DNA from: Candidatus Woesebacteria bacterium UBA1430
GTDB taxonomy: Bacteria; Patescibacteriota; Microgenomatia; UBA8517
Direction: 5' to 3'
Length of the DNA stretch: 64,000 nucleotides
NCBI GenBank assembly: GCA_002329465.1
Contig: DCTW01000005.1
Location: forward strand, 4,131-68,130
Shown here: positions 3,741 through 49,191 of the stretch, piece after piece
Numbering within the stretch: the first letter of the stretch is position 1
How the letters are laid out: each line of letters opens with the position of its first letter
The notes under the pieces: generated by a model
What the model saw: the letters and a program-made list of their open reading frames with translations, nothing else
Databases searched by the model: none
Told to the model about the DNA's origin: nothing
Program-made: the position numbers and the translations under genes

Positions 3741-4158
3741 AACTATAAGTTTTTAAGAGATAACAAATTTCTTAAAAAAACAAAAAAAATAAAAGTTTTA
3801 AAATTAAAAAAACAGTAAAATTAAAAAAATTCGAACAATAAAATAAAGTATATAGTATAAACTAATTAATATTTTAGAGATTGTTGACAAAATGAGGATA
3901 ACATTAAAAAATTTAAGTCAAAAAAATGAATAAAAAATTTCAACAGAATTGTTAATTTTTAAAACGGTATAATTTAATTATTATAACTTATAGTAAAAGT
4001 GACAAAAAAATAAAAAAATCGGTATTACAAAAAGTCATAAAAACCAAACCAAATTTAGCTATAGGTTATTAATAAGAAAGCATTTTTATAATCCAAACAA
4101 AAATTGGTTATAAAAAGGCTCTAAAAAATATCAAAAAACCAAGTAATAAAGACAAAAA

Positions 4159-7941: not shown

Positions 7942-9222
7942 ATGCCGGAAAAGTTGGCAACTCTTCCCAAAGGCACAAAAATTCCAAACCATATAGCAAT
8001 TATCCCGGACGGCAACAGGCGCTGGGCTAGGGCAAGAGGATTGGATCCTTCGGATGGGCATAAAATAGGAGCGGAAAGGGTACACGAGATTGTCTGTACC
8101 GCACGCGATTGGGGAGTACATACAGTTACCTTTTGGGGGCTTTCTACCGAAAACTGGCGTGAAAGAAGCCCCAAAGAAGTAAAAATTTTATACCAAACAA
8201 TAAATAAATTTATAGATAAGCATCTTGTTGAAGCAAAAAAAGACGGAGCGAGAATAATCCATCTTGGCAGAAAAGATCGCCTTCCTCGCTGGCTAATTAA
8301 AAAAATTAGCAAAGCGGAAAAAGAAACCATTAACAATACAAAATATGTTTTCAATATAGCCTTGGATTATGGCGGCCAGGACGAAATAATTCGTGCAGTT
8401 CAAAAAATAGTCAAAGACAAAGTCAAGCCTGAAGAAATAACGGTAAAATTAATAGATAGCTATATGGATACAAAAGACCAGCCATATCCGTATCCGGATC
8501 TTTTAATTAGAACATCAGGTGAGCAACGAACAAGCGGTCTTCTTCTCTGGCAATCCGATTACACAGAAATGTACTGGGAAACAGATCATCTTCCGGCATT
8601 TACCCCGGAAAAGCTAAAAGATGCAATCCTTGATTATTCAAGACGAAGAAGGCGTTTTGGCGGAAACGATAGCGAAAAGCACTTTGCCTTTAAACCTGCT
8701 GTCGCGGCCAAATTGGAGCTTGATTGGTGGAGATTGGCAAATATTCCCGAGGACAAGTCTTTCGGAGAATATACAAAGGAGCATCTTGTTGAGCAGTGGG
8801 GATTATCAAAAAGTTTGGCCGGAAAAGGCGCAAAGCTTATGGCAGAGGCCTTGGTTCATGGAAAAAGAGAAAAATGGGTTAAGTCCAAAAAATACCTAAA
8901 AGAATTTTATAAACTCATTAAAGACGAGGTTAAGCTGGCTTTCGAGCCTTCGCTTGCTGCATCATTCGAGATAAACATACTCCAGCAGATAAACGGCGGA
9001 TCAAAAGAGATAGAAACAGAAAAAATAGAATACGAATCAAGAAGGTTATTATCCGAAGTCTATAGAATAAGCGATCTGCAGGCCAGGAAAGCAGCCCACC
9101 TAAGAGCACTTGCAACCCTGGAAAGAAACAGGGCGGAGCGTGGAGAAGGGGATGACCATTGGGTTAAAGCTGGTACTTATCTTGAACTATATTACGAAGC
9201 CCTCAAGGACCGCATTGCCTAA
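7942..9222 (+). CDS. uppS: Undecaprenyl-diphosphate synthase (cis-prenyltransferase) with an unusual C-terminal extension of about 185 aa.
   Basis: The UppS core carries 'HIAIIPDGNRRWA' and 'LLIRTSGEQRTSGLLLWQ'. The enzyme is 426 aa against roughly 250 aa for typical UppS proteins; the extra C-terminal region is charged and helical. Confidence 0.8.
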   Translation: MPEKLATLPKGTKIPNHIAIIPDGNRRWARARGLDPSDGHKIGAERVHEIVCTARDWGVHTVTFWGLSTENWRERSPKEVKILYQTINKFIDKHLVEAKKDGARIIHLGRKDRLPRWLIKKISKAEKETINNTKYVFNIALDYGGQDEIIRAVQKIVKDKVKPEEITVKLIDSYMDTKDQPYPYPDLLIRTSGEQRTSGLLLWQSDYTEMYWETDHLPAFTPEKLKDAILDYSRRRRRFGGNDSEKHFAFKPAVAAKLELDWWRLANIPEDKSFGEYTKEHLVEQWGLSKSLAGKGAKLMAEALVHGKREKWVKSKKYLKEFYKLIKDEVKLAFEPSLAASFEINILQQINGGSKEIETEKIEYESRRLLSEVYRISDLQARKAAHLRALATLERNRAERGEGDDHWVKAGTYLELYYEALKDRIA

Positions 9223-10187
9223 ATATATTTCAATACGATTTTTTTTGCTTTCTTAATAAAAACAGAATCTTCCATAGCAACGCTTAGGCTATTTGTTCCT
9301 TTAGTTTTACATCCGCCAAAAATATAGACATTACCTCCGGTTCCAAGCTCAAAATAAGCATGCTGAACATTTGTAATAAAGTTTTCCTCAAAAAACTTTT
9401 CAGCTTCGGCCTTAAATTTAGGCCATGAATTTTTCTTTCCGGACTCATGCTCAATTAAAAGTCTCCCCAATCCTTGAAGAGCACGAGCCGTTCTCATAAA
9501 CTCTGAAATTCCTTGGGTATAAAAGACTCTAAATTCGGTAGCGACATTATCTATGCACTTTGAATTTTTTAGTTTGATAAAGTTTTGTTGATTCATAACT
9601 CCTCCCGCCCCTTTTTCATAAGGGCCGCCTTCTCTAAGCCTTCCCGAATCAGAGCTCCACCCGCACGCGGCAACAGCGCTCATAATAAGGTGCGCTTCGT
9701 CTGAAACATTAATTCCGCCTAAAGTAAAATGTGTTTCATATTTAAATCTCGGATCAAGAAACCCGCGAAGATATAAATAATAAACCTCACGCGACAAAGT
9801 CAGATAACTATTTGCAGGATTTAGAGAAAACTCATAAATTCCATCTTTACCTTGAGGAATCCCCATGCCTTCCGCTGCCAATTGATAGCATTCCGATACA
9901 CTAAGATGGGGATAATCCTCACGGCATATATATATTTCCCGACTAGTCCTTGGAATTTTATGCTCAAACACCTCAATTTCAGCGCCAATTGTCGGTGTAA
10001 AAGGTAATGGGTTTCTCTCCCTTTCTTCCCAGTGAAGTTTCCTGTGGAGTGGATTTAGCAAAAACCTATACAAAGAAAGCATTTCGTCATTTACAGTAAT
10101 AGGGGGCATGTCGTCATCTTGCTGATAATGTGACACAGCCATTCTGTCAACCGAGACAAGCCTCTTTTCTATTTCATTTAAAGCCAT
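9219..10187 (-). CDS. Hypothetical protein.
   Basis: A 322-aa ORF with no recognised motifs. Confidence 0.35.
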   Translation of the reverse strand: MALNEIEKRLVSVDRMAVSHYQQDDDMPPITVNDEMLSLYRFLLNPLHRKLHWEERERNPLPFTPTIGAEIEVFEHKIPRTSREIYICREDYPHLSVSECYQLAAEGMGIPQGKDGIYEFSLNPANSYLTLSREVYYLYLRGFLDPRFKYETHFTLGGINVSDEAHLIMSAVAACGWSSDSGRLREGGPYEKGAGGVMNQQNFIKLKNSKCIDNVATEFRVFYTQGISEFMRTARALQGLGRLLIEHESGKKNSWPKFKAEAEKFFEENFITNVQHAYFELGTGGNVYIFGGCKTKGTNSLSVAMEDSVFIKKAKKIVLKYI

Positions 10188-10286: not shown

Positions 10287-10511
10287 ATGACAAAAGATAC
10301 ATCAAAAACTAAAAACATTGACATAAATAATCTCCCTGATTTATTAACAGTTAGGGAAGTAGCCCAGCTTCTAAGAGTCTCTCCCTTGACTATAAAAAGA
10401 TGGGGTAAAAGAGGAAAGCTACCACCCATACGAATAAACTCCCGAGGCGACCGCCGCTACAAAAAAGAAGCGGTTCTCTACCTTCTCGGCATGCAGTCCC
10501 CGAACGAATAA
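10287..10511 (+). CDS. Small helix-turn-helix DNA-binding protein of the excisionase/AlpA-like family.
   Basis: The sequence 'LLTVREVAQLLRVSPLTIKRWGKRGKLPPIRINSRGDRRYKKEAV' matches the excisionase-family HTH pattern. Confidence 0.6.
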   Translation: MTKDTSKTKNIDINNLPDLLTVREVAQLLRVSPLTIKRWGKRGKLPPIRINSRGDRRYKKEAVLYLLGMQSPNE

Positions 10512-10588
10512 CTTACTTTTCATACTATATATACACGAAATACGTTTTTTGCTAAACTCATCTTAGATATAAAAAAATAAATCTGCCC

Positions 10589-13500
10589 ATGCTAAAGACT
10601 AAGTTCAAACTCGGTCAAAAAATTGTATTTAAAATAGCTAAAAAAATTTTCTTGCTTTTTTTAATATTTTTATTTGCTTTCCCCTTTAATATTATTGTGC
10701 CGAAAACAAATAGCGTTTTTGCCTCGACATCCCATGTAATTACTACGCGCGAAGATTGGGATAGCGGCGAATTCAATTTCGTTGAATCCGAGACTGAAAA
10801 CGGATCTATAAAACTCAGAGCAGATGGTGAATGGGAGCCAAGAAGCTTTGAAACACCAAATCTTACGTTGTCATACGGCGCGTCTTTTGTCTCTGACGGT
10901 ACTTATATTTATGTGTTAAGAGGATACGGGGACGATGCTTTTTGGAAATATAATCCGAATGATGATAAATGGGAAGACCTTGCAAGCCCTGATCTTGGGG
11001 CTTATCACGGAGCAGATCTTGTAATTATAGGCAACTACATATATGCAATTTTCGGCGGCAATCAGCCTAACTTCGCCAGGTACGACAAGGAATCCGACGC
11101 ATGGACCAATCTTGAATCACTTCCTGCTTTGGTAAATACGGGGGGATCACTGGCAACGGACGGTACGGATATCTATGCTATGAGAGGCGGATCAACCACA
11201 GTATATTTTTATGATGTAAGCGAAGACGATTGGTTGGAAAAACCCGAATTTCCCTCATCCGTATCTTATGGAGACTTGGTTTATCACAATGGCTATCTAT
11301 ATAATGTTGATAACAGCAATCCAAACAGATTTTTCAAATATTCTGTGGCGGACGGTTCTTATGAACAGCTTGAAAGCCCGCCCCAAAGAATAACAAACGA
11401 AACAGACGCGACCATTCACGATGGCTACATCTATTACATGCGCTCCTCAAATACTACGGATTTTTATAGATACAACCTGTCCGGTGGAACCTGGGAAACA
11501 TTAACATCAACGCCCCAAAATAGCCGAGGAGGCGTAGTCTATCACTCCGCTGATAACTATATTTACGTTTTTCGAGGCAATTCAAGCTACGATTTTTGGA
11601 AATACGATATTTCTAACGATTCATTCCTTGGCCCTACCGACTCTCCGGTAACACTCTATAGGGGAAGCGATATGCTCTACTACAATTCGAATTTTTATAT
11701 TCTAAGAGGATACAATACCCCGACATTTTATGAGTATGATATTTCGGAAGCAACTTGGACCCAAAAAGCTGACGCACCGGGTAACATTTATTACTACACT
11801 CGGGGAACAGCCGCCGGGCAGTATCTTTATTTTTTCCAAGGAAACAGCACAAGCTTTTATAGCTATGATCCTCTGGAAAATTTATGGACGACGCTAACGC
11901 CGGCTCCACTTTCAACTAGCGAAGGAGCACTTGCTTATCCGGGGAGCGGGGACTATATCTACGCAATCCGTGGAGGTGGAACATCAACATTCTGGCGCTA
12001 TAGCATTTCACAAAACGAGTGGCAAGATAACGAAGCAGAGGATCTGCCCTCGGGAATAGCAGCGGGAAGCGGATCGGCTTTAATCAGCGTTGAAGGAGAT
12101 CTGTTTTTGCTTTTAGGTTCAGGAACGCCTGGATTTTATAAGTACGATGTATCTGAAAATTCCTGGTCGGCATTGCTTGAGGCTCCTTTTGCGCCTTCAA
12201 ACAGCTCGGACATTGCTTACGATAACTCAAATAAAATACTGGCGATTGCATCCAACTACGATGACGATCTTTATGAATACAATATTTCCTCAAATACATG
12301 GAGGCGTCTTGCCAACATGTCTGAATACTATGGATACAAACTTGGCACTGCCAATGGAAGCTCAATTGAATACGACGGCTTAGGAAGCTTCTATATAGTA
12401 AGGGGACAGACAACAATTAATCTTCTTAAATATAACCCAAGCAATTACAATTATCCGGTTTCCGGTACTTGGATAAGCGATGCCTTAGATTTATCCTATG
12501 TATCAAGCTGGGTTTCGCTTTCGGCAAGCACAACCACACCTTCCGATTCCTCTATAAACCTTGAAACAAGAACCAGCAGCGATTTATCTAACTGGTCATC
12601 ATGGGAAAGCGTATCAGAAGGCACTATCTTCTCGCCGGCCAACCGCTATATCCAAATAAAAGCAACGCTCTACGCATCAACAGATAGAACTGAAACTCCA
12701 AAACTTAATGACATAACTGTTGCTTATACCGGAGACGAGGTAGATCCACTAAATCCAAGTAGCGTAACGGCTTTGTCGCAGCAGGTAGGAGGAAGCAGCT
12801 TAACAAGCGGGGAGACATATTCTCACGCTCATCCTTACTTCTATTGGTCTGGTTCGGATGAGCATACTTCGGTAGCAGGATATTATGTTTATTTCGGCGC
12901 TTCAAGTGACGCAAATCCTAAAACACAAGGGAATTGGCAAACATCAGGTATTTTTACCGTTACAACACCACTATCCCAAGGAAGCTATTACTTAAGGATA
13001 ATTACCAAAGATCAAGTAGGAAACGAGTCGGATCCGGTAACACTTTTTACATACGTTTACAGCGGTGTGGGGGCGGATCAGTCATTTACGGCGGACGAAA
13101 CATCCGAGTTTCTTGGTACAACATCAAATGTAGATGTTTCAAACGACCAGATTACCCTTGCTTCGGTAGACGGCTTTTGGCTCGAAGAAAGATTTAGCCT
13201 TGCTCCGGCGGGCCTTCAATATGCAGCGCACACTCCGGCTTACGTCAGCTCTACAAATAAACTTTATATCCTTCGTGGAGCAAACGACAATGTTTTTTTA
13301 GAGTACGATCTAACAACAGATACATGGACCACGCTTTCTCCGGCTCCCGATGCGGCAAGAATGGGTGGAGGAGTAATCGAAGGTCCGGCGGGATATCTAT
13401 TTGCGCTTCAGGGAAACAATACCAACAAGTTCTGGCGCTACAGCATAGCTACAGATGAATGGAGCGATGAAGAAGCATCCGATGCTCCAAGCAACGTTTA

Positions 13501-16500
13501 CTACGGAGGAAGCATGGTTTACGACCAATCCCGCTATATTTATGCAACCCGTGGGGACAATACCGATTCGTTCTGGCGCTACGACACTATTGATAACACA
13601 TGGAGCAGCTCGGCAGTAGCTTCTCTAAATTTCGGGGCACCCACAAACGTAGGCACAAACAATGCATATACCGGAGCAGACCTTGTATTTGATGGAGATG
13701 ATACAATCTATGCAATACAGGGCAATTATCAGGCCGGTTTTTCCGCTTACAGTATAAGCAGTAACGAGTGGACACCCCTTTTAAATCTGCCGATTCTTCC
13801 CAGTTCCGGTGCTTCAATCGAAATCTCAAGCGACAATTCTTCAATCTACTACGCCCCCGGAGATAACCAAACGGATTTATTTAAATACAGTATTGCAAGC
13901 AATACCTGGTCCCAAATGTCCGATGCTCCGGCAAGTATAAGTTATGGCGGATCAATAAGAAGAATTGGCGAAAAGCTTTACGTAATAAGAGGAGGAAACC
14001 AGACACAAATTTATACATACAACACGGAAACCGATATGTGGAAAGTTCCTGTGCGAGGTTTATTTGGCCCCGTTTTTCAAGGGACTTCCCTTGATTCCCT
14101 TAATTACAGCAGCGCTATAGCCAAAGGCGTTGGGTCAAATTTTTACATGATACGCGGCAATTACGCAAACGACTTTATAAGCTACAATTCTCAAACAGGC
14201 GAGGTAACAAGGTTAAAAGACTTGCCCTCCGGTTCTTATTTGGGTGCCAGTTTAGTTTACGACAGTGTAAACGCCAAAATATATTATCATCCGGGTGTAT
14301 ATTGGAACCATTTTTATGTATATGACACCTCAAGCGACACATGGAGCGAAGAAACAAGCGACCCCCCGCCAGCCGCTCCCAACGCAGGATCAAGCATGGT
14401 ATATGACGGATCAAGATATATCTATCTATCTCGAGGTGGATGGACAAATTCGTTTTATCGCTTTGATACAGAAAACCAATCGGCAGGAACTAAGTGGGAA
14501 ACTTTAAACAACACCCCCGCTTCTTTAAGCTATGGATCAGAACTGGTTTATAAAGATAGCTATATCTATACTCTGCGGGGTGCAAATGAAGCCAATAATC
14601 CCTTTTATCGGTACGATACGGTGGAAGGCACCTGGGACGATGCGGCGGTGGCGGATCTTGATATAGATGTTTATTACGAAGGCTTTTTGGTGGATGGCCA
14701 CGATGGCTATCTTTATGCGGCAAGAGGCGATAACGCAAATGAATTCTATCGTTACTCAATAAGTGAAAACAGTTGGGAAAGTTTGGCCAGTGTACCCGGT
14801 CAGGTTTACAGAGGAGGCGCGGCTATATCAGACGAAGCAGGCAAAATCTTGGTTTTCGCAGGAGCGGGGACAAATACATTTAACGACGCTCTTTATACCT
14901 ATGTCCAAAACACAAGCTCTTCAGGTTTTCAAGAGAGTGGTACATACACCTCACAAGCACACGACCTTACAAGCGTTTACAAATGGGGTAATATTACCCT
15001 TACTTATCAATCTGCTTCGGATACAACGCTTCAAGTAGAAACGCGCACTTCAAGCGACGGATCGGACTGGTCCGGATGGCAGGAATCAACTAAATTAAAA
15101 ACAATCGCCACAAGCTATGAATATTTGATCAATTCGCCGGCGAATCGCTATATTCAGGTGCGTTTTAGCCTAGATTCTACAAACGGAATTTATTCAGGTG
15201 TTATTTCAGACTATACAATCAATTATTATCAGGATTTAACAGCACCTTCTAACCCCGCTGCGATAACGACATATAGCAGTAGTAATAAAACTATCGAGTT
15301 GACAGAATCCGATGCTTGGTATTCATACACCTCTCCTTATTTTGATTGGCCGGATGAGGAAACAGCGGGAGGTGCTACAGACAGCTCAACCGGCTCCGGA
15401 GTAGTGGGTTATTATGTTTATTTTGGTACAAATGAAAGCGCAGACCCAGCAGTCTCAGGTGAATTAACCTCAGATACATATTATCAGGCACAAAATTTGG
15501 TAACAGGCCAGACATACTATCTGAGAATAAAAACGGCTGACGATGCAGGCAACACACAGGAAGAAATTTGGCAGCCTTTTATCTATAAATTTGACAGCAC
15601 CAACCCCTCAATACCAACAGGTCTGGAAGCGGACCCTTCCGGATATTCGGCTGTTGACAGCTTTAGCTTTGGCTGGAATGCCTCAAGCGATCCCGAGTCG
15701 TTAATAACATCTTACTGCTACAAAACAGGTGCCGAAAGTGGTGCCTGGTCCTCCGATCAATGCGCCGACGCATTGACGGTGTCAAGCGTACCGTCGTATA
15801 AGACGGGAGCAAATGTTTTTTATGTAAGAAGCAAAGATTCGGCCGGAAATTATTCGGATTATGCAACTGTTACTTATTATTTTAATACAGGCGCTCCTTC
15901 TGCGCCTCAGAACCTAAGCGTAACACCCTCTGTTAATACGCTAAATTCGTTTTCGTTCTCATGGTCTGCCCCCGCAGTCTATCTCGGCAGCGAATCAAAC
16001 ATCAAGTATTACTACAGCATCAACGCCCTCCCCACAGCTCAAAGCGTAACCGAAACGCTAACGTCAATGCTTTCGGCAGGTGCGTATGCAACTCTGCCTG
16101 GAGAGAATACATTCTATGTAGTAGCAAAAGACGAAGCAGGAAACATGGATTACAATAATTATGCTTCAATCACATTTACCGCAAATACCACAGCACCGGG
16201 TATCCCGACAAGCGTTGATATAGCGGATGTTTCCGTAAAAGCGACAAGCAGTTGGAAACTTGCAGTTTCTTGGGAAGAGCCTAGCCTTACCGGAGCGGGT
16301 ATAGCAACATATAAAATTTATAGATCAATAGACGGCATTGCCTACACTTACAGAGCATCCACAAGCGGAATTTCCTATGTTGACACAGGATTAACACAGC
16401 AAACCTATTACTACAAAATCAATGCATGCGATAGCGCCAATAATTGTGGTGAATTTTCAAGCACGGTATCAATGTATCCGGACGGCAAATTTACAGAAGC

Positions 16501-17725
16501 GGCGCCTTTGATAAGCGATCCTTCTGTAAGTAATATAACGACCCGTAAGGCTGTTGTTTCTTGGACGACTTCAAGAACAAGCGATTCCAAGGTGGCTTAC
16601 GGCACCTCATCCGGAAGCTATTTTACAGAAGAAGTAAGTAACTCGGATCACGTAACAAGCCACACAATTACACTGACAAATCTTGAGCCTGGAACTACAT
16701 ATTATTACATAGCAAAATGGACCGATGAGGACGGGAACACAGGCACAAGCTCGGAAAATACTTTTGAGACAAGCCCCGCTCCCTCGGTAAAAGACGTATC
16801 CGTTTCTGAAATAGGTATAGAATCGGCGCTGATAACATTTACCGTAACAGGAGCTTCCAAAATAAAAATATACTATGGCGAATCTACATCCTTCGGAGGT
16901 ATAAAAGAAATAAGTACCTCCGCCTCTGAATCAACATATACGGCGCAATTGACAGGTCTGCTTGACGGAACAAAATATTACTATAAAATTAACGCCTTTG
17001 ATAGCGAAGAATATGAATACGCAGGTACAACACTTGATTTTGAAACACTTCCGAGGCCGCAAATAAGCGAAGTCACCGTCCAACAAGTCAAAGGAACCGC
17101 TCAACCAACCCTACTTGTCACCTGGGAAACAAACACCGAAGTGTCAAGCATTGTTTCTTACTATCCTTTGGAAAATCCTCTTCAGGCAAGAGACGAAATA
17201 AACGCAGATCTTACAAAAGGGGAGCACAAAATGATCGTCCGCGGCCTGATGCCCGAAACGGTTTATGCGCTTGTTATAAAAGGAAGAGATAAAGTAGGAA
17301 ACGAAGCCGTCTCTGATGTAATTAACTTAACAACTTCTTCCGATACACGCCCTCCACAGATAACAAATCTAAAAGTTGAAGGTAGCCTTATGCCGAATAT
17401 ATCGGATCAGGGCGAATCGGTAACCCAGCTGGTAGTTTCCTGGGATACGGACGAGCCCTCATCGGCACAAGTTGAATTCGGAGAGGGCACGGCAGATACT
17501 TACGCTCAAAAAACCCAAGAAGACTCAAATCTTACATATAATCATCTTGTAGTTATATCCGGACTTTCTCCAAGCAAAGTTTATCATCTTAGAGCGGTTT
17601 CAAAAGACAAAGCCGGAAACGAGGGTAAATCAGTTGATACCGTAACTATCACCCCCAAGGCCACAAAAAGCGCTCTTGATCTTGTAATTACAAATCTTTC
17701 CGAAGCATTCGGGTTTCTTAAATAA
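10589..17725 (+). CDS. Giant (2378 aa) secreted or surface protein made of Kelch-type beta-propeller repeat arrays and fibronectin-III-like domains.
   Basis: It has a signal peptide or N-terminal anchor. There are at least 25 repeats of about 47 aa with the pattern 'IYxxRGxxxxxFxxYxxxxxxWxxLxxxP'. Domains containing 'SPANRYIQ' and 'YYVYFG' are duplicated. The C-terminal Fn3-like modules include 'GTTYYYIAKWTDEDGNTG' and 'KVYHLRAVSKDKAGNEG'. Confidence 0.8.
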   Translation: MLKTKFKLGQKIVFKIAKKIFLLFLIFLFAFPFNIIVPKTNSVFASTSHVITTREDWDSGEFNFVESETENGSIKLRADGEWEPRSFETPNLTLSYGASFVSDGTYIYVLRGYGDDAFWKYNPNDDKWEDLASPDLGAYHGADLVIIGNYIYAIFGGNQPNFARYDKESDAWTNLESLPALVNTGGSLATDGTDIYAMRGGSTTVYFYDVSEDDWLEKPEFPSSVSYGDLVYHNGYLYNVDNSNPNRFFKYSVADGSYEQLESPPQRITNETDATIHDGYIYYMRSSNTTDFYRYNLSGGTWETLTSTPQNSRGGVVYHSADNYIYVFRGNSSYDFWKYDISNDSFLGPTDSPVTLYRGSDMLYYNSNFYILRGYNTPTFYEYDISEATWTQKADAPGNIYYYTRGTAAGQYLYFFQGNSTSFYSYDPLENLWTTLTPAPLSTSEGALAYPGSGDYIYAIRGGGTSTFWRYSISQNEWQDNEAEDLPSGIAAGSGSALISVEGDLFLLLGSGTPGFYKYDVSENSWSALLEAPFAPSNSSDIAYDNSNKILAIASNYDDDLYEYNISSNTWRRLANMSEYYGYKLGTANGSSIEYDGLGSFYIVRGQTTINLLKYNPSNYNYPVSGTWISDALDLSYVSSWVSLSASTTTPSDSSINLETRTSSDLSNWSSWESVSEGTIFSPANRYIQIKATLYASTDRTETPKLNDITVAYTGDEVDPLNPSSVTALSQQVGGSSLTSGETYSHAHPYFYWSGSDEHTSVAGYYVYFGASSDANPKTQGNWQTSGIFTVTTPLSQGSYYLRIITKDQVGNESDPVTLFTYVYSGVGADQSFTADETSEFLGTTSNVDVSNDQITLASVDGFWLEERFSLAPAGLQYAAHTPAYVSSTNKLYILRGANDNVFLEYDLTTDTWTTLSPAPDAARMGGGVIEGPAGYLFALQGNNTNKFWRYSIATDEWSDEEASDAPSNVYYGGSMVYDQSRYIYATRGDNTDSFWRYDTIDNTWSSSAVASLNFGAPTNVGTNNAYTGADLVFDGDDTIYAIQGNYQAGFSAYSISSNEWTPLLNLPILPSSGASIEISSDNSSIYYAPGDNQTDLFKYSIASNTWSQMSDAPASISYGGSIRRIGEKLYVIRGGNQTQIYTYNTETDMWKVPVRGLFGPVFQGTSLDSLNYSSAIAKGVGSNFYMIRGNYANDFISYNSQTGEVTRLKDLPSGSYLGASLVYDSVNAKIYYHPGVYWNHFYVYDTSSDTWSEETSDPPPAAPNAGSSMVYDGSRYIYLSRGGWTNSFYRFDTENQSAGTKWETLNNTPASLSYGSELVYKDSYIYTLRGANEANNPFYRYDTVEGTWDDAAVADLDIDVYYEGFLVDGHDGYLYAARGDNANEFYRYSISENSWESLASVPGQVYRGGAAISDEAGKILVFAGAGTNTFNDALYTYVQNTSSSGFQESGTYTSQAHDLTSVYKWGNITLTYQSASDTTLQVETRTSSDGSDWSGWQESTKLKTIATSYEYLINSPANRYIQVRFSLDSTNGIYSGVISDYTINYYQDLTAPSNPAAITTYSSSNKTIELTESDAWYSYTSPYFDWPDEETAGGATDSSTGSGVVGYYVYFGTNESADPAVSGELTSDTYYQAQNLVTGQTYYLRIKTADDAGNTQEEIWQPFIYKFDSTNPSIPTGLEADPSGYSAVDSFSFGWNASSDPESLITSYCYKTGAESGAWSSDQCADALTVSSVPSYKTGANVFYVRSKDSAGNYSDYATVTYYFNTGAPSAPQNLSVTPSVNTLNSFSFSWSAPAVYLGSESNIKYYYSINALPTAQSVTETLTSMLSAGAYATLPGENTFYVVAKDEAGNMDYNNYASITFTANTTAPGIPTSVDIADVSVKATSSWKLAVSWEEPSLTGAGIATYKIYRSIDGIAYTYRASTSGISYVDTGLTQQTYYYKINACDSANNCGEFSSTVSMYPDGKFTEAAPLISDPSVSNITTRKAVVSWTTSRTSDSKVAYGTSSGSYFTEEVSNSDHVTSHTITLTNLEPGTTYYYIAKWTDEDGNTGTSSENTFETSPAPSVKDVSVSEIGIESALITFTVTGASKIKIYYGESTSFGGIKEISTSASESTYTAQLTGLLDGTKYYYKINAFDSEEYEYAGTTLDFETLPRPQISEVTVQQVKGTAQPTLLVTWETNTEVSSIVSYYPLENPLQARDEINADLTKGEHKMIVRGLMPETVYALVIKGRDKVGNEAVSDVINLTTSSDTRPPQITNLKVEGSLMPNISDQGESVTQLVVSWDTDEPSSAQVEFGEGTADTYAQKTQEDSNLTYNHLVVISGLSPSKVYHLRAVSKDKAGNEGKSVDTVTITPKATKSALDLVITNLSEAFGFLK

Positions 17726-17745
17726 ATTTGATAAACTAAAATAAG

Positions 17746-18258
17746 ATGCAGGACGATTTAATCAGATTTTTTTCAACAACAGAAATATCGGTTTTCAAGG
17801 GATTGTTTTTTATTACAACAGCCTTTTTTTTAATCTCAATATTTATAGTAATTCTTCTTTCGGCGCTTTCTACAACCACTTTTATTAAAAAAAGAGATAA
17901 AAAAAATAGAAATAAGCTGATAATGGTACTAATTATCCTTCTGGCACTTCCGGTCGGCGTTTCAACAATGGCTCTACAAAAAAGTCTTGGAAAAAGTTCC
18001 AAGGCATATTCTATTGGTATTGTTTTTAAAGAATCTGTACCCCTTGATGATTCAAGCTATCTTGTTAATATAGAAACAAAATCTCCACACATTCTCTATC
18101 TTAAAGCAAAGCTTCCTACTGGCGATTTTGAAACAATAATGCCCACTTATTCGCTTGAGAAAAGGAAACTCCACTCGTTTATTATCCCGCGGGAACATCT
18201 CGACGATCTTTATATAGTGGCAGAGGATTTGGAAATGCCTTTTGATATTTCCGATTAA
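17746..18258 (+). CDS. Hypothetical membrane protein.
   Basis: A 170-aa protein with two transmembrane segments, lying directly upstream of the ABC transporter genes. Confidence 0.4.
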   Translation: MQDDLIRFFSTTEISVFKGLFFITTAFFLISIFIVILLSALSTTTFIKKRDKKNRNKLIMVLIILLALPVGVSTMALQKSLGKSSKAYSIGIVFKESVPLDDSSYLVNIETKSPHILYLKAKLPTGDFETIMPTYSLEKRKLHSFIIPREHLDDLYIVAEDLEMPFDISD

Positions 18259-18263
18259 CCAAA

Positions 18264-19043
18264 ATGGAATATACAAAGATCGTCCAAATAAATAATCTAA
18301 CTAAATCTTTTAGAGTAGGCAGTCAAGATATCAACGTACTCAAAAATATTTCATTTTCGATTTCGAATGGAGATTTTGTAATAATAGTTGGCCCTTCCGG
18401 GTGTGGTAAATCAACACTTCTTCATACAATCCTAGGTCTTGAGCCTCCGACAAGCGGGGATGTAATTTTCCTTGGCAGAAACGTCTATCGTGAATTGGCA
18501 ACCGAGGACGAGCGGTCTGATTTTCGGAAAAAACATATAGGCATGGTTTACCAGCAATCAAATTGGGTAAAAGCGCTTACTTCTATAGAGAATGTTTTTT
18601 TTCCGCTGATGCTTATGGGCTACGACGAGGAGCTCTGCAGACAAAAAGCCGAGGACATGCTCAAAAAAGTAAACATGCTTGAGTGGAAGGATTTCATTCC
18701 CACAGAACTCTCCGGTGGACAGCAGCAAAAAGTCGCTCTCGCAAGAGCACTGATTAATAATCCCGATGTAATTATCGGAGACGAGCCTACGGGAAATCTG
18801 GATTATGCGTCCGGCGAAGAGATTATGAATCTTTTTATAGAGCTTAACAGCAAAGAAAAAAAGACCGTAATAATGGTTACTCACAACCTTGATTATTTAA
18901 ACTACGCAAAAACGACAATAAGGTTGTTTGATGGACAGCTTGTCGGTATATATAAAGAAAAAGATAGGAAGCAACTTGCAAAAGATATAGAAAAATTTAA
19001 GCTTGGAAACAAATCTCAAAACAAAAATGAAAAAAGCATTTGA
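18264..19043 (+). CDS. ABC transporter ATP-binding protein (MacB/LolD/FtsE-like).
   Basis: Walker A 'GPSGCGKST', the ABC signature 'LSGGQQQK' and Walker B 'IIGDEPTGNLD' are all present. Confidence 0.9.
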   Translation: MEYTKIVQINNLTKSFRVGSQDINVLKNISFSISNGDFVIIVGPSGCGKSTLLHTILGLEPPTSGDVIFLGRNVYRELATEDERSDFRKKHIGMVYQQSNWVKALTSIENVFFPLMLMGYDEELCRQKAEDMLKKVNMLEWKDFIPTELSGGQQQKVALARALINNPDVIIGDEPTGNLDYASGEEIMNLFIELNSKEKKTVIMVTHNLDYLNYAKTTIRLFDGQLVGIYKEKDRKQLAKDIEKFKLGNKSQNKNEKSI

Positions 19044-20997
19044 CAAGGTAAAAAATTTCCCAAAAATTAGTTTTGGAAAAATTGTTCTTTCATCTTTAAA
19101 AGAATTTGTATCAATATTTTTTTTTAACATCGTTTTGATCGTTTATCTTTTGGAAATTTTTTTCGTATGGATATCTAAAAGAAAATTTTTTCCCAAAATA
19201 ATTTCGAGAAAAATTAGTCCACCGGTTCGCAAAGTTACTAATAAAATATACTCTCTATCTAAAAGATCCGAAGGCAGTATAAATACAATTAGTTTGATCA
19301 ATCTTGCCTTAAGAAGCATGAGAACCAAAAGATCCAGGACTTTTGTTACAATCGGTGGAATGTCCGTAGGTATCGGTGCGATAGTTTTTCTTGTATCGAT
19401 AGGTTATGGCCTTCAAAGGGTAGTGGTTAGCCGCGTTGCGAGACTCGAAGAGCTTAAACAGTATGAGGTAAGCACCCAAATCGGTTCGCAGGTTAAAATT
19501 ACAGATTCGTCAATGGCTGATATCTCAAACATAGACGGTGTAGTAGAAACTCTGCCGCTTATTGCAGTAGTAGGAAGGGTAAACTACCAAAACTCTGTTA
19601 CGGACCTTGCAGTATATGGAGTAACTTCAAAATTTCTAGTTCACTCTGCTATAAAACCCATTAAAGGCGACACCTTCCGGACAGAAGAAGTTGTCGTTAC
19701 TAAAAATATTCAAGAAGAAGTTTCAGGTGTTTCAGACACGAGGATTGATCAAAATATTGGAGATGAAATCGGAAAAGTGCATTTTTTAATACCCGAGGGT
19801 GAGCAGATAAAAGTAAGAAGCGAACCGTCAAAATCATCGTCACTAGTTGGCTATGCCAAAGGCACGGGTAATGCTCTTTTGGGCACTGAAGTATGGGGAA
19901 GTTATTATGATTCTGCTAACCCCGAAGACCAAGCAGAAAACACAAACGGGCAAAAAATGAGCAAATGGATAAAAGCAAGCCTGCAGGTCTGGGAAAAAGA
20001 AGGAAACGGCTTTACTGTAAAGGGGTTTATTTCAAAAGAGCAAATTAGGGTGTCAGGTGTTTTAGGCACTACAGATGAAATCGATGTTTCGGAGTTGGCA
20101 GAACTTATCGAATCAACAGGCTCGGCAGAAATCGAACTTCTCGAACTTGCTTCCGAATCGGCAGGGCTAAAGAATAATGAAATAAAAAAAGTTGATCTTG
20201 CTGAAAATACGCTTAAAGAAGCGGTTGTCAACAGATCCTTCTTAACTCTTTTAGGTATTGAAGAATCTCAAGCAGTAGGAAAAACTTTTGATATATCTTT
20301 TGTGATAGTCGGAGACCTTTTGTCAAATACGGAGGAAAAAATAGAGTCCATACCGGCTTCTTACAAAATAATCGGAGTTATCCCGGATGAAGATTCTGCC
20401 TATATCTACGTTCCTTTTTCAGATCTTAAAAGCCTTGGTATTAAAAATTATACACAACTTAAATTAGTAGTCGAAGACGATAAAAAACTTGAGCATGCCC
20501 GTAGGCAAGTAGAAGCTATGGGTTTTACAACATCCTCTGTAATAGATACGGTAAATCAAATAGATCAGCTGTTTGCCACCCTAAGATTTGCCCTTGCTTC
20601 GGTTGGAATGATAGCGCTGGCAGTTGCCGCCCTTGGTATGTTCAATACAATGACGGTATCTCTACTTGAAAGAACAAGGGAAGTAGGATTAATGAAAGCA
20701 ATGGGAATGAGATCCGGCGAGGTAAAAGATCTTTTTTTGACCGAGTCAATGACAATGGGCTTTCTGGGAGGTCTTTTTGGATTGGGCATAGGCTTTATTG
20801 CTGGAAAATTAGTAAGCGTACTTATATCCATATTGGCATTAAGTAAAGGCTTAGGCTTTATAGATATAAGCTATATTCCACCTATGTTTATACTAGTAAT
20901 AATTATTATGTCCACTCTCGTCGGTCTTTTTACAGGTATTTATCCTGCCCGCCGTGCCAAAAACATCTCTGCACTCAACGCATTGCGCTACGAATAA
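19027..20997 (+). CDS. ABC transporter permease (MacB/FtsX-like) with a large extracytoplasmic domain.
   Basis: The N-terminal transmembrane segment is 'FVTIGGMSVGIGAIVFLVSIGYG'. The C-terminal FtsX-type four-helix bundle is 'LKAMGMRSGEVKDLF…'. The track start at 19003 overlaps the ATPase gene, so I used the ATG at 19027. Confidence 0.75.
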   Translation: MKKAFDKVKNFPKISFGKIVLSSLKEFVSIFFFNIVLIVYLLEIFFVWISKRKFFPKIISRKISPPVRKVTNKIYSLSKRSEGSINTISLINLALRSMRTKRSRTFVTIGGMSVGIGAIVFLVSIGYGLQRVVVSRVARLEELKQYEVSTQIGSQVKITDSSMADISNIDGVVETLPLIAVVGRVNYQNSVTDLAVYGVTSKFLVHSAIKPIKGDTFRTEEVVVTKNIQEEVSGVSDTRIDQNIGDEIGKVHFLIPEGEQIKVRSEPSKSSSLVGYAKGTGNALLGTEVWGSYYDSANPEDQAENTNGQKMSKWIKASLQVWEKEGNGFTVKGFISKEQIRVSGVLGTTDEIDVSELAELIESTGSAEIELLELASESAGLKNNEIKKVDLAENTLKEAVVNRSFLTLLGIEESQAVGKTFDISFVIVGDLLSNTEEKIESIPASYKIIGVIPDEDSAYIYVPFSDLKSLGIKNYTQLKLVVEDDKKLEHARRQVEAMGFTTSSVIDTVNQIDQLFATLRFALASVGMIALAVAALGMFNTMTVSLLERTREVGLMKAMGMRSGEVKDLFLTESMTMGFLGGLFGLGIGFIAGKLVSVLISILALSKGLGFIDISYIPPMFILVIIIMSTLVGLFTGIYPARRAKNISALNALRYE

Positions 20998-21039
20998 TAT
21001 TGCTCCTTAAAGCAAGTAGAATGATATAATACGAATTAT

Positions 21040-21939
21040 ATGAAAAAGATTTTACCCTTACTATTAATAGTATATTTTTTTGTCTTTTCCGAGAAATCTG
21101 TTTGTGCTCAAATAAAGACGGAAGTCCCAAGCCCTACCGCGACTTTCGAGTCTGAACCAACAGCCTCGCCGGATCCGACTCCGGAGCCAACCCCAAGGGT
21201 TGACATTACCCAAAAAAGCGAAGAATCAATAGGCCCTCTCGAAAAGCTTTTAAACGATCAGGTGTTAGGGCCTGTTTTTCCCGCAAACCCACTTAAATAT
21301 GCAATTCGTGCTTCAGTCAAAGCGGGAGTGCCGCCTAACACTATAGTACTTCTAATTCTCTTGCCGTTAATAGCCGCAGTTATAGCAGCGGCACGCCACA
21401 TAATAGGCTTAAGAGGATTTGGTATTTTTCTGCCGGCTGCTTTATCAATAGTATTTGTTGCGATAGGCCCTGTAGTCGGGCTTTTGTTGTTTTTAGTTAT
21501 AGTATCCGCCTCGACATTTTTTAGAATGCTTTTAAGAAAAATAAAAATCAAGCTTCAATATTTACCAAGGATGTCTTTGATTCTCTGGTTTGTTGTCTGC
21601 GGAGTTCTTTTGGTGTTGTTTCTCGCACCGCTTATCAAAATACCCGGGCTTACCAATGTTTCGATTTTCCCGGTTTTGCTTTTGGTTCTTCTTGCGGAAG
21701 ATTTTACCAAACTCCAGCTTGGAAAAAGCGCACGTACAGCGGTAAGCTTTATAACGGAAACAATTATTTTGTCTTTGATATCATATATGTTTCTTACCAT
21801 GCAGTCGCTTCAGCGTTATGCTTTGCTCAATCCGGAGATTACGCTTCTATCGGTTGCGGTTTTTGATCTCATATTAGGAAAATATACAGGCCTTCGCGTA
21901 TTGGAATACTGGAGATTCAGAAAACTAATTAAAGGCTAA
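21040..21939 (+). CDS. Signal peptide plus a seven-helix polytopic membrane protein.
   Basis: A cleavable-looking signal ('…FVFSEKSVCAQ') is followed by a Pro/Thr-rich linker and then seven hydrophobic helices. The gene sits directly upstream of the ATP-grasp genes. Confidence 0.55.
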   Translation: MKKILPLLLIVYFFVFSEKSVCAQIKTEVPSPTATFESEPTASPDPTPEPTPRVDITQKSEESIGPLEKLLNDQVLGPVFPANPLKYAIRASVKAGVPPNTIVLLILLPLIAAVIAAARHIIGLRGFGIFLPAALSIVFVAIGPVVGLLLFLVIVSASTFFRMLLRKIKIKLQYLPRMSLILWFVVCGVLLVLFLAPLIKIPGLTNVSIFPVLLLVLLAEDFTKLQLGKSARTAVSFITETIILSLISYMFLTMQSLQRYALLNPEITLLSVAVFDLILGKYTGLRVLEYWRFRKLIKG

Positions 21940-21943
21940 ATCT

Positions 21944-23269
21944 ATGAAAGCTCAAAACATCTTGGGTCTTAACGCAAGAACTCAACTTTTTTCATATCAA
22001 TACAATAAACCAAAGTCAAAACGCATTGCCTCATCAAAACTGTTAACTGAAAAGGTGCTTAAAAAGGCCGGTATTCCAACTCCGCTAATATATAAAAAAT
22101 TTATAAAGCCGAAAGATATTCTTAATTTTGACTGGAACGGCCTGCCTGAAGCTTTCGTAGTTAAACCAAGCAGGGGACTGGGAGGAAATGGGATCATAGT
22201 CATTAAAAAAAGATCTAAAGACAAAACAGGTTGGATCACAACAAGTAGGAAAAAATTACTCGAAGAAGATTTAAAACTCCATGTTTTAGATATTTTAGAA
22301 GGCGCTTTTAGCATGCACAACTCACCGGACGCAGCCTTTATTCAGGAATACGTACCTCGCCATAAAGCTTTTAGAAAGTACGCATATCGCGGCACGCCTG
22401 ATATAAGAATTATTGTTTTTAACAAAGTGCCGGTAATGGCGATGATGCGTCTTCCCACAAAAGATTCCGGCGGCCGAGCAAATCTCCATCAGGGCGCAAT
22501 AGGTGTGGGAGTTGATATAGCAACAGGTATAACAACAAAGTCTATTTGGTATGGCAATCAGATCCGCTATAAACCGGGCACAAAAAGAAAGCTTCATGGT
22601 ATTAAAATCCCTCACTGGACGGATATATTAAAAATTGCGGTCTTGAGCCAAGAAGCATCAGGGCTTGGACTTTTAGGGGTTGATATTGTTCTTCATCCTA
22701 CCAAAGGGCCAATGGTTCTCGAGTTAAACTATCAGCCGGGTACGCAGATACAGCTTGCAAACATGGCAGGTCTTAGAAAAAGGCTTGAGAGAGTTGAAGA
22801 TCTTAAAGTAAGAGATGCAGAGCATGGTGTTAAAATTGCAAAAGCACTTTTTATGTCTGACTTCTCAGATAGAGTAAAAGCAGATGAAGGGGTAAAAACA
22901 ATTTCGTCATTAGAAGAGATAAAAATAAAAGGCGCTCAAAAAGGGCTCAGAAAAAAGGTTTACGCAAAAGTCGATACGGGTGCCTGGAGAACGTCAATTA
23001 GTAAAAAATTAGCCGAAGAATTAGGACTTCTTAATCAGAATAACATCCTTTGGACTAAAGAATTCAAAAGTTCTCTTGGTAAAGAAGAAAGGCCCGTTAT
23101 AAGCCTTACATTTTGGCTTGCGGGTAGAAAAATCACAACTCCAGCTTCAGTCGCGAAAAGAATGACACTTAAATATCCAATAATAATAGGAAGAAAAAAT
23201 CTTAAAGGTTTCTTGGTAGATCCGCACATTCCCATAGATAAAGTAAAGGAGGCAAGAGAAAAAAAATGA
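21944..23269 (+). CDS. RimK-like ATP-grasp ligase fused to a C-terminal retropepsin-like (clan AA) aspartic protease domain.
   Basis: The ATP-grasp core carries 'VVKPSRGLGGNGIIVI' and 'ELNYQPG'. The C-terminal domain carries the active-site motif 'AKVDTGAWRTS' (D-T-G-A) and 'PIIIGRKNL'. Confidence 0.7.
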   Translation: MKAQNILGLNARTQLFSYQYNKPKSKRIASSKLLTEKVLKKAGIPTPLIYKKFIKPKDILNFDWNGLPEAFVVKPSRGLGGNGIIVIKKRSKDKTGWITTSRKKLLEEDLKLHVLDILEGAFSMHNSPDAAFIQEYVPRHKAFRKYAYRGTPDIRIIVFNKVPVMAMMRLPTKDSGGRANLHQGAIGVGVDIATGITTKSIWYGNQIRYKPGTKRKLHGIKIPHWTDILKIAVLSQEASGLGLLGVDIVLHPTKGPMVLELNYQPGTQIQLANMAGLRKRLERVEDLKVRDAEHGVKIAKALFMSDFSDRVKADEGVKTISSLEEIKIKGAQKGLRKKVYAKVDTGAWRTSISKKLAEELGLLNQNNILWTKEFKSSLGKEERPVISLTFWLAGRKITTPASVAKRMTLKYPIIIGRKNLKGFLVDPHIPIDKVKEAREKK

Positions 23270-49190: not shown

Positions 49191-49191
49191 T

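Follow-up and report, generated by a model that had tools for sequence, protein, structure and literature searches.

What does a 2,378-residue surface protein do in a small-genome bacterium, and with which of its neighbouring genes does it work? This question is raised by a 64,000-nt stretch of contig DCTW01000005.1 from Candidatus Woesebacteria bacterium UBA1430 (positions 4,131 to 68,130; hereafter, the window), in which a giant open reading frame (ORF; 10589..17725, forward strand) follows a small helix-turn-helix (HTH) gene. A first interpretation, made from the letters of the window alone (hereafter, the sequence-only reading), had described the giant ORF as encoding an internally duplicated Kelch/fibronectin type III (Fn3) protein and had considered the HTH gene either its dedicated regulator or the remnant of a mobile element. 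The overall picture obtained in this study, which we regard as fairly probable, is that of a surface arm partnered with an ATP-binding cassette (ABC) system of type VII, the HTH gene being an incidental neighbour; its descriptive parts can be stated with high confidence. Judging from gene order, the ABC ATPase and permease encoded downstream of the giant gene represent a conserved partner that was overlooked in the sequence-only reading.

Integrity and Termini of the Giant Gene

The ORF table and the translation revealed an uninterrupted frame devoid of internal stop codons, and, together with the hydropathy profile, confirmed the single 7.1-kb ORF with an N-terminal signal or anchor that had been described before. 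In an independent Logan assembly (L001), the gene was identical and intact; in a JGI assembly (L092), it was likewise intact, with 4 of 7,137 nt differing. The latter assembly matched the window with 99.83% identity over 19 kb, and its gene order agreed on both flanks of the giant gene. Because intact, near-identical copies occur in these independent assemblies, interpretations of the gene as a pseudogene or as a chimeric, artefactual assembly product were rejected. As a separate observation, one ENA assembly (58,224-nt contig) carries a copy from the 90%-identity cluster of the giant protein that was called as two genes of 473 and 1,706 aa (P0391 and P0393). The split may stem from a frameshift, reflect a pseudogene in that strain or result from faulty assembly.

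According to hydropathy analysis, the only hydrophobic segment of the protein lies at approximately aa 10–40, with basic residues on its N-terminal side and 'P...VFA|S' on the other. The first 46 residues are therefore read from sequence as either a signal peptide or an N-in membrane anchor. This region was found to be the least conserved part of the protein (19.7% identity). The C-terminus (...TPKATKSALDLVITNLSEAFGFLK) features neither the LPXTG motif nor the C-terminal transmembrane segment that sortase anchoring would require, and no RTX or Calx matches were obtained for the protein in the Pfam scan.

Conserved Linkage to an ABC/FtsX Gene Pair

The giant gene heads an operon that is conserved within its family. 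In the window, it is followed, after 20 nt, by the small gene p170 and, after a further 5 nt, by the ABC ATPase gene, which overlaps the permease gene. To evaluate this arrangement at the level of the family, 71 related loci with enough downstream sequence were compared. The giant gene was directly followed by the ABC ATPase gene in 66 and by the permease gene in 67 of the 71 loci, the distance between the giant and ABC genes being 0–30 nt or one small transmembrane gene. Gene contexts on the other side of the giant gene vary widely, while the ABC synteny persists through rearrangements and through different classes of protein heads (see below), a pattern not easily accounted for unless the genes are functionally linked.

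The ATPase features Walker A (GPSGCGKS), LSGGQ, Walker B (VIIGDEP) and H-loop (THN) motifs, and is thus predicted to be catalytically competent. Its nearest NCBIfam models were LolD, FtsE, YbbA, DevA and MacB, with scores below the respective cut-offs (LolD 216.7 versus 307.75 bits, FtsE 181.7 versus 264.85 and MacB 173 versus 966). For the permease, which was also called with 656 aa in L092, FtsX matched residues 534–656 (68.5 bits; cut-off 25.5) and MacB_PCD residues 113–254 (55.3 bits; cut-off 27). Four transmembrane segments are located at approximately residues 112–142 and 522–649, and the extracytoplasmic domain of about 380 aa between the first and the second of them contains an insertion of about 150 aa that splits MacB_PCD. 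An SH3b-like stretch suspected within this ectodomain was dropped for want of Pfam support. ADOP, MacB, LolC/E and FtsX were the nearest NCBIfam models of the permease, with LolC/E reaching 66.4 (cut-off 362) and FtsX_Gpos 35.2 bits (cut-off 225). Encoding a permease with an FtsX domain and a MacB-like periplasmic core domain as well as an ATPase with intact motifs, the genes at 18264..20997 classify by sequence as a type VII ABC system and, since both proteins score below every equivalog cut-off, as one of its own kind.

No Pfam or NCBIfam match was obtained for p170 (170 aa). In 16 loci, a gene for a protein of about 130 aa with a transmembrane segment and an Fn3-like domain resides between the giant and ABC genes; similarity of p170 to these proteins was marginal (7.2 bits), and the proposed homology was reduced to a positional analogy. 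Promoter-like sites between 10100 and 21200 were as frequent as expected (29 versus 25.5 ± 5.5) and, hence, uninformative. Terminator-like sites numbered 18 versus 9.5 ± 3.2 expected, none of them being convincing within the intergenic gaps.

Distribution and Conservation of the Giant Protein Family

Ortholog statistics were derived from the best 120 of 345 protein matches, all of them full length, and the genome scan was carried out on species-dereplicated representative genomes. In all, full-length orthologs in Patescibacteria exceed 120 in number, with lengths of about 2,350–2,400 aa. Of these 120 orthologs, 109 are between 2,300 and 2,399 aa long; identities were 46–54% at a coverage of 88–100% (mostly 97–100%). 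Named sources were Patescibacteria, Woesebacteria, WWE3 and Levybacteria, in line with the earlier description of a giant extracellular Kelch/Fn3 protein from a small-genome bacterium. In the representative genomes, at least 401 stretches encoding family members were confirmed, with hosts among the stretches listed comprising Roizman-, Levy-, Woese-, Shapiro-, Collier- and Pacebacteria, WS6/Dojkabacteria and Moranbacteria. Database records label the orthologs as 'hypothetical', 'large repetitive protein', fn3-containing or, at JGI, 'N-acetylneuraminic acid mutarotase'. Many third-party metagenome-assembled genome records harbouring the gene (L004, L009, L010, L014, L016, L021 and others) bear apparently wrong titles, namely 'uncultured Pseudomonadales/Gammaproteobacteria/Bdellovibrionales/Saccharibacteria' and, in one case, Melioribacter roseus. 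Neither the family nor its linkage to ABC genes was found described in full-text literature searches; the family is uncharacterised, and the gene studied here is an ordinary member of it.

Within the same genome pairs, the giant protein (47–52% identity) was better conserved than ribosomal proteins L10 (31–34%) and L12 (42–46%), WecG (31–37%) and the PEGA protein, and was on par with the ABC ATPase (46–55%). This pattern indicates, at the sequence level, that the protein is under purifying selection. Identity is distributed evenly along the chain, peaking at 60–62% in modules Fn3-4 to Fn3-6, Fn3-9 and the C-terminal tail, and even the heads remain 49–51% identical across lineages. Host or particle attachment, envisaged in the sequence-only reading, is a candidate role only; the fixed length and a conservation above that of L10 and L12 make the protein unlike typical fast-evolving adhesins.

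A second class of family members (class 2; L062–L083, e.g., L070:4653-10559 and L062:4461-10598), mostly with Parcubacteria-type titles and about 1,950–2,070 aa long, possesses a different head, lacking both Kelch blades and the domain marked by the motif 'SPANRYIQ'. This head consists of a ConA-like LamG domain interrupted by an array of repeats of about 55 aa (motif 'W..IGGDG.NSSW...YE.V.S...LYAGLG...DAEVW') that had no Pfam match. Retained are a jelly-roll-like segment, the 'GYYVYFG' Fn3 domain, the seven-module Fn3 stalk (about 57% identical to that of the giant protein) and the tail 'ALNLVITNL..VFGFL'. The ABC/FtsX pair is likewise retained in most of these loci. The constant core of the family thus appears to comprise stalk, tail and ABC engine, with the lectin-type head being variable. 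A search with modules Fn3-6 to Fn3-9 and the tail recovered mostly C-terminal fragments truncated at contig ends and no new head classes.

Domain Architecture and Ancient Duplication

Parsing of the protein with profile hidden Markov models (HMMs), as had been proposed in the sequence-only reading, placed it in the Kelch-repeat family. Six Pfam models scored above their cut-offs, namely Kelch_6 (105.4 bits; cut-off 25.3), Kelch_1 (78.4; 20.1), Kelch_3 (93.5; 22), Kelch_4 (64.6; 21.6), Kelch_2 (40.4; 21.3) and PF24681 (113.8; 50). An iterated blade HMM built from the protein itself resolved the two arrays, previously estimated at about 12–13 blades each, into exactly 12 and 12 blades, each with an i-Evalue between 1e-8 and 1e-20. 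As described before, each array is followed by a 'SPANRYIQ' domain (motif at aa 682 and aa 1516), which measures about 98 rather than 90 aa, and by an Fn3-like domain with the motif 'YYVYFG' (aa 765 and aa 1608). The latter motif does not begin the domain but lies about 43 residues inside it.

In total, nine Fn3-like modules were found by segment-wise Pfam scans and motif comparison: one after each head and seven in a row, replacing the former count of about six further modules. The model fn3 (PF00041) reached 61.5 bits for the whole protein (cut-off 25), and Fn3-6 to Fn3-9 gave strong fn3 or Pur_ac_phosph_N matches above the cut-off. Fn3-like modules 2, 4 and 5 remained below threshold (16.7–19.5 bits), module 1 matched Big_13 only (21.3 bits; cut-off 27), and Fn3-3 had no Pfam match in the segment-wise scan; the first three stalk modules were thus below threshold or recognised solely by the shared motif 'YY.[RK]...D..GN'. 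The cysteine pairs C1710/C1725 and C1947/C1953 within two modules of the stalk are invariant among orthologs, which fits an extracytoplasmic location of the protein. The C-terminal tail is free of indels and shows a mean identity of 62%, with A2362, L2363, F2374 and F2376 being invariant.

Comparison of the two halves of the protein delimited the super-repeat to residues 71–817 and 852–1660. These form one continuous alignment of 828 columns with 28.6% identity (E=1.1e-60). This half-versus-half comparison was needed for its detection, since self-BLAST of the whole protein gave the main diagonal only; DNA self-BLAST detected no similarity within the gene. All full-length orthologs, even those with no more than 35–40% identity, share the layout of 12 Kelch blades and a jelly-roll, each occurring twice, and the jelly-roll copies are closer to the orthologous copy (41–58%) than to the paralogous one (28–42%). 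On both grounds, the duplication is interpreted from sequence as predating the divergence of the carrier lineages. The two-fold super-repeat proposed earlier is therefore real, but, as far as sequence comparison indicates, it is ancient and does not represent a lineage-specific segmental event.

The AlphaFold2 (AF2) model of head unit 1 (aa 47–720) is a single rigid body with a predicted local distance difference test score (pLDDT) of 87.4 and a predicted template modelling score (pTM) of 0.79. In the DSSP pattern of this model, blades 6 and 12 of array 1 have only three in-sequence strands each, the fourth one missing. The top fold matches were tandem double propellers, namely Pwp2, Utp21, BT4663, Aip1, LRP6 and GH74, whereas the six-bladed Keap1 covered only half of the model. 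Because the three-stranded blades suggest two Velcro closures and because of the tandem double-propeller matches, we infer from the model that each array probably forms two six-bladed propellers. The structure prediction suggested earlier for the 'SPANRYIQ' domain, carried out with a 45-sequence alignment, yielded a confident β-sandwich (pLDDT 94.7). This domain had no Pfam match, and the best hit of the PDB profile search had E=0.47. Its nearest solved folds in Foldseek were modules of the carbohydrate-binding module (CBM) families CBM32/CBM6, PirA and phage baseplate domains (best E=0.045, TM-scores 0.47–0.56), so that the model resembles CBM32/CBM6 weakly and at the level of the jelly-roll fold only. 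A profile search found the domain in 4,820 cluster representatives, 951 of which reached E<=1e-10. Copy numbers range from 1 to 10 per protein, and sampled proteins also bear GH16, Laminin_G_3 (LamG), glucodextranase-B, Calx-beta, fn3 or Kelch domains. Its occurrence in many proteins, beside GH16, LamG and glucodextranase-B domains, indicates a widespread module of extracellular, glycan-associated proteins that is not modelled in Pfam.

The Upstream HTH Gene and the Placement of the Cassette

The HTH gene encodes 74 aa and ends 77 nt before the giant ORF, as had been reported. Its product matched HTH_17 (4.9e-11; 43.2 bits, cut-off 27), MerR_1 and TIGR01764 'excise' (31.6 bits; cut-off 28.8), and its best solved relatives were the BldC–DNA complexes 6AMK and 6AMA (E=1.7e-8). 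Like BldC of Streptomyces, it is about 70 aa long and consists of a MerR-type winged HTH only, with no dimerisation or effector domain. It differs from BldC in scoring below the cut-off of NCBIfam HTH_BldC (45.4 versus 77 bits) and in residing, in these genomes, in an envelope neighbourhood with PEGA, MreB and WecG genes. BldC-like proteins have been reported to 'radiate throughout eubacteria' (PMC5859096). For the HTH protein, more than 6,300 homolog clusters were found, the top 120 of them being 78–97% identical and originating from Levy-, Woese- and Gottesmanbacteria, a conservation far above that of the giant protein.

In the closest relatives of the window (L084–L086), the flanking DNA is 85–88%, MreB 98%, L10 91% and the HTH protein 97–100% identical to the window. 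The gene order in these relatives is polyprenyl synthase, UppS, p322, HTH and, after 32 nt, a 7TM_transglut/ATP-grasp operon; the same HTH-to-7TM order was found in L089. The nucleotide identity of L084 and L086 with the window (85–88%) extends up to position 10501 and resumes from 21022. The HTH gene adjoins the giant gene here because a 10.5-kb cassette of giant, p170, ATPase and permease genes occupies the spacer between the HTH gene and the usual 7TM operon. No direct repeats, recombinase or flanking tRNA were found at the cassette junctions. The GC content at third codon positions (GC3) of the cassette genes (0.28–0.39) is within the range of the window (0.353 ± 0.032), their raised GC content originating from codon position 2, and a recent foreign origin of the cassette was rejected on this basis, a donor of similar GC content aside. 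A 'GATATAA(T/A)' element was read 12–17 nt upstream of the start codons of both the giant and the 7TM gene.

Adjacency of HTH and giant genes was counted by means of a sensitive profile search. It was observed in none of 43 loci of the window's clade and none of 14 class-2 loci; consistent adjacency, proposed as a check in the sequence-only reading, was thus not found in the window's own clade. Among loci of a Moranbacteria-like clade, it occurred in 5 of 11 (6 of 12 when L037 is included), with the HTH gene located 29–97 nt upstream of the giant gene in these five as in the window. In several other genomes, the HTH gene lies 2–6 kb from the giant gene within the same neighbourhood of PEGA, MreB, WecG and ribosomal protein genes, and this shared neighbourhood explains how adjacency can arise. 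One homolog (L090:6583-14178, 52% identical) combines two MerR/HTH_17 domains, a basic linker and a transmembrane segment with the giant ectodomain in one ORF; there, the equivalent of the N-terminal hydrophobic stretch follows the fused cytoplasmic HTH domains. The next gene (L090:14325-15068) encodes two HTH domains and a C-terminal transmembrane segment. If the assembly is right, the fusion could be a transcription factor that is tethered to the membrane and bears an ectodomain of 2,300 aa.

On this sequence evidence, the HTH protein is regarded as a BldC-like, vertically inherited housekeeping neighbour that does not belong to the cassette. The assumption of a dedicated regulator finds no support in the window's clade; given the recurring adjacency in the Moranbacteria-like clade and the L090 fusion, a regulatory link may nonetheless exist. 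As a further observation, the HTH protein is among the best conserved proteins in these genomes, with identities of 75–100% where MreB reached 52–98% and L10 31–91% (L003, L084, L087–L089). It stays near the PEGA–MreB–WecG envelope cluster across lineages, and may serve Microgenomates as a core protein with a regulatory or architectural role.

Proposed Function and Alternative Explanations

In the proposed mechanism, the giant protein would be exported or anchored via its N-terminus and would carry, on an Fn3 stalk of about nine modules, heads that bind glycans or ligands, acting as the extracytoplasmic partner of a type VII ABC mechanotransducer. Coupling to the large outer domain of the permease would most likely proceed through the conserved C-terminal end with its amphipathic helix. 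By analogy with FtsEX-EnvC/PcsB, LolCDE and YbbAP-TesA, ATP hydrolysis might serve to assemble or release the arm or to change its conformation. Such systems are reported to work through extracytoplasmic partners and not by transmembrane transport, as exemplified by FtsEX-EnvC, LolCDE and YbbAP-TesA (PMC7668044, PMC12646458, PMC5985334). Whether the giant protein and the ABC system are physically coupled is, on gene order, a nearly balanced question, with the chances falling slightly on the negative side. A bolder version, which we consider speculative and rather unlikely, would unite both in one surface machine that is driven by ATP and belongs to the core equipment of many Patescibacteria. 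In place of a hydrolase activator, the extracytoplasmic tool of the type VII ABC mechanotransducer would be a lectin-headed Fn3 arm of about 50 nm (a rough estimate from the domain count), which ATP hydrolysis would deploy, retract or release during attachment to hosts or surfaces, with its C-terminal helix docked and its state reported to a BldC/MerR-type HTH protein in L090 and the Moranbacteria-like clade.

Several observations weigh against a surface arm partnered with the ABC system. Only conserved synteny connects the ABC pair with the giant protein, and 5 of the 71 loci, most of them of class 2, have no ABC gene immediately downstream. In L090, the next gene encodes the protein with two HTH domains and a transmembrane segment, with only about 1 kb of contig left at this point. 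The division of each array into six and six blades was deduced from strands assigned by DSSP and from the fold matches of a model. The likeness of the 'SPANRYIQ' domain to CBMs is non-significant, as Foldseek returned no matches at E<=0.001. Furthermore, the closest non-self ortholog among 5.8 billion proteins is 54% identical, though flanking genes are 85–98% identical in near-complete relatives; no ortholog above 54% to this allele was seen among the matches listed. The near relatives L084 and L089 are without the cassette at this site, and either lack it or harbour a very different one. The absence of a close ortholog and of the cassette at this site in near relatives suggests that the system may not be universally required.

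Part of the same evidence would also suit a stand-alone adhesin, that is, a Sec-exported, N-terminally anchored fibre binding hosts, prey or particles, with the ABC genes merely co-transcribed and serving efflux, lipid or peptide export. The long Fn3 stalk with its lectin-type heads (Kelch propellers and a CBM-like jelly-roll or, for class 2, LamG), the N-terminal signal or anchor and the swapping of heads between lineages, as predicted for changing ligands, agree with this explanation, and all cultivated Patescibacteria are reported to be episymbionts (PMC11623550). However, length and sequence are unusually constant for such a protein, as judged from the narrow length range of the orthologs and the head identities exceeding those of L10, and the ABC/FtsX synteny would be difficult to account for; a stand-alone adhesin is therefore considered improbable, while deserving consideration. 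Constancy of this kind would be accommodated by an envelope scaffold or S-layer-like core surface protein, with the ABC/FtsX pair acting in an FtsEX-like manner in wall remodelling or assembly. The distant relationship of the permease to FtsX and the abundance of envelope and morphogenesis genes in the window and related loci (two MreB genes, PBP2, UppS, WecG, Wzy_C, PEGA, sortase and polysaccharide deacetylase) point in the same direction. Against this, the cassette is missing at this site in the closest relatives, which, on contigs of about 0.9 Mb, contributed no close ortholog to the top 120 matches. Moreover, neither self-assembly motifs nor SLH or other wall-binding domains were detected in Pfam scans of the whole protein and its segments, and the permease matches MacB_PCD instead of the FtsX ectodomain family, its FtsX NCBIfam score being far below the cut-off. 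A scaffold function is consequently thought to be quite improbable.

The L090 fusion and its neighbouring gene for two HTH domains and a transmembrane segment, as well as the separate HTH gene close upstream in the window and in the Moranbacteria-like loci, raise the idea of a giant transmembrane sensor. Its heads would sense an external glycan or surface, with HTH output and the ABC pair as a co-sensor like BceAB, in resemblance to the hybrid two-component glycan sensors of Bacteroides. BT4663, a periplasmic sensor of two propellers and a β-sandwich, was indeed among the top structural matches of head unit 1 (E=1.4e-14), but matched no better than unrelated tandem propellers. The fusion was found in only 1 of the top 120 homologs, and the cytoplasmic N-terminus is only 10–20 residues long in the majority of the family. 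Since HTH adjacency is absent from the window's clade and from class 2, and since cassette placement explains it in the window, a sensor function appears very improbable. Finally, an excisionase left behind by the mobile element that delivered the giant gene would be compatible with the TIGR01764 match and with the cassette being an insertion relative to close relatives. This explanation, put forward in the sequence-only reading, is hardly credible, given that the HTH gene occupies the same place, nearly unchanged, in cassette-free relatives, is highly conserved across Levy-, Woese- and Gottesmanbacteria, and that neither the junctions nor the GC3 values bear traces of such an event. The surface arm with its type VII ABC partner thus remains the favoured reading.

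Comparison with Known Systems

With type VII ABC systems (FtsEX with EnvC, PcsB, CwlO or RipC, LolCDE-LolA, MacAB-TolC and YbbAP-TesA), the locus shares a separate LolD/FtsE/MacB-like ATPase, a four-transmembrane FtsX-domain permease with a MacB_PCD-type outer domain and tight genetic linkage to an extracytoplasmic protein. The small membrane co-factor gene of some giant loci is reminiscent of SweC/SweD (PMC6705773). Known partners of these systems are a coiled-coil hydrolase activator, an adaptor, a lipoprotein carrier or an esterase, whereas the partner here would be a Kelch/Fn3 protein of 2,378 aa. The system also differs from the named ones in its scores below the equivalog cut-offs and in its ectodomain insertion, and its interaction with the giant protein is putative.

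The giant adhesins LapA, SiiE, SprB and those of the Ebh type are likewise very large, extracellular and modular, with a β-sandwich stalk and a ligand-binding end. For LapA and SiiE, an ABC transporter is encoded nearby, which is also true of the giant gene. Unlike these adhesins, the giant protein lacks a long array of near-identical repeats, has a fixed, ancient domain order across orders and is conserved far above the usual level of adhesins. It carries an N-terminal Sec-type signal and neither the RTX/C-terminal signal of type I secretion nor LPXTG or another known C-terminal sorting signal. No genes for a membrane fusion protein, an outer membrane protein or TolC were found in the giant locus, the linked ABC system being of the FtsX type.

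BT4663 and the giant protein have in common tandem β-propellers followed by a β-sandwich on the outward-facing side of the membrane and, in L090, a fused HTH output. In contrast to the seven-bladed Reg_prop protein BT4663, the giant protein is of the Kelch type with probably six-bladed propellers, has an N-terminal transmembrane segment and no kinase or receiver domains, and its HTH fusion is rare. With the Kelch mutarotases NanM/YjhT, it shares the Kelch repeat type, probably with six blades per propeller, and partial matches to TIGR03547 and TIGR03548, which remained at 91 and 44.5 bits versus cut-offs of 243 and 256; furthermore, its propellers, presumably four, are embedded in a surface protein of 2,378 aa. 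At JGI, the label 'N-acetylneuraminic acid mutarotase' is a transfer at the level of the repeat and not a functional assignment.

Patescibacteria (candidate phyla radiation) account for a large share of bacterial diversity. Apart from the type IV pili of Saccharibacteria, we know of no account of how most of them build their surface and make contact with hosts. For Microgenomates, WWE3, Dojkabacteria and Parcubacteria, the giant family offers a candidate core device of the cell surface or for attachment that can be put to the test. Should the coupling prove real, a further kind of partner would be added to those known for type VII ABC 'mechanotransmission'. Two misleading annotations were resolved, the giant protein being labelled 'N-acetylneuraminic acid mutarotase' and a BldC-like housekeeping gene 'excisionase', and a widespread jelly-roll module without a Pfam model was flagged. 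Most worth pursuing is the picture at the level of the family, that is, a core, length-constrained giant surface protein with exchangeable lectin heads that is apparently linked to an ABC engine of type VII, in hundreds of species.

Feature Coordinates and Neighbouring Genes

Table 1. Features of the giant locus, with positions in the window.
Feature	Position	Strand	Basis or remark
BldC-like/excisionase-type HTH gene, 74 aa	10287..10511	+	HTH_17, TIGR01764, BldC structures
10.5-kb cassette (giant gene, p170, ABC, FtsX)	10502..21021	+	Absent at the site in closest relatives L084/L086
Giant gene, 2,378 aa, intact	10589..17725	+	
N-terminus (aa 1-46): basic stretch, 18-residue hydrophobic segment, 'VFA|S'	10589..10726	+	Hydropathy
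Kelch array 1, 12 blades, aa 96-622	10874..12454	+	Blade HMM, AF2 model
'SPANRYIQ' jelly-roll domain 1, aa 623-718	12455..12742	+	No Pfam model; AF2
Fn3/Big-like domain 1 with 'YYVYFG', aa 722-825	12752..13063	+	Big_13 4e-4, sub-threshold; aligns with Fn3-like domain 2
Kelch array 2, 12 blades, aa 881-1451	13229..14941	+	Blade HMM; PF24681 best over aa 1190-1351
'SPANRYIQ' jelly-roll domain 2, aa 1452-1548	14942..15232	+	
Fn3-like domain 2 with 'YYVYFG', aa 1555-1665	15251..15583	+	fn3 1.1e-3, sub-threshold
Stalk, seven Fn3-like modules, aa 1668-2350	15590..17638	+	fn3 and Pur_ac_phosph_N above cut-off in last four
Amphipathic C-terminal tail 'KATKSALDLVITNLSEAFGFLK', aa 2351-2378	17639..17722	+	
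p170, small protein with two transmembrane segments and β-rich C-terminal part	17746..18258	+	Hydropathy
ABC ATPase, MacB/LolD/FtsE type, 259 aa	18264..19043	+	ABC_tran 1.7e-35
MacB/FtsX-type permease, 656 aa from ATG 19027 (TTG 19003 possible)	19027..20997	+	MacB_PCD 1.4e-14, FtsX 6.9e-19

Downstream of the cassette (21040-25037), an operon encodes a 7TM_transglut (RloB-like) membrane protein and three ATP-grasp/RimK-type ligases, one of which has a C-terminal RimB/Zn-protease-like domain. On its other side, the gene p322 (9219-10187, reverse strand; 322 aa) had no Pfam or NCBIfam match, is found at the same position in L084–L086 and shares 4 nt with the UppS gene at the latter's end. The UppS protein itself (Prenyltransf; 7942-9222, 426 aa) matches its Pfam domain over aa 21–240 only, leaving about 185 C-terminal residues outside. 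Within the 64 kb, two MreB paralogs were detected (2733-3740 and 48156-49190), the second of which adjoins two further genes, one (49099-50814) for a PBP2-type transpeptidase and the other (46240-48102) for a Wzy_C/TPR membrane protein. Moreover, a 399-aa protein (33924-35123) features a cohesin (6.6e-17) and a type I dockerin domain (1.6e-10), which is unexpected in small-genome Patescibacteria.

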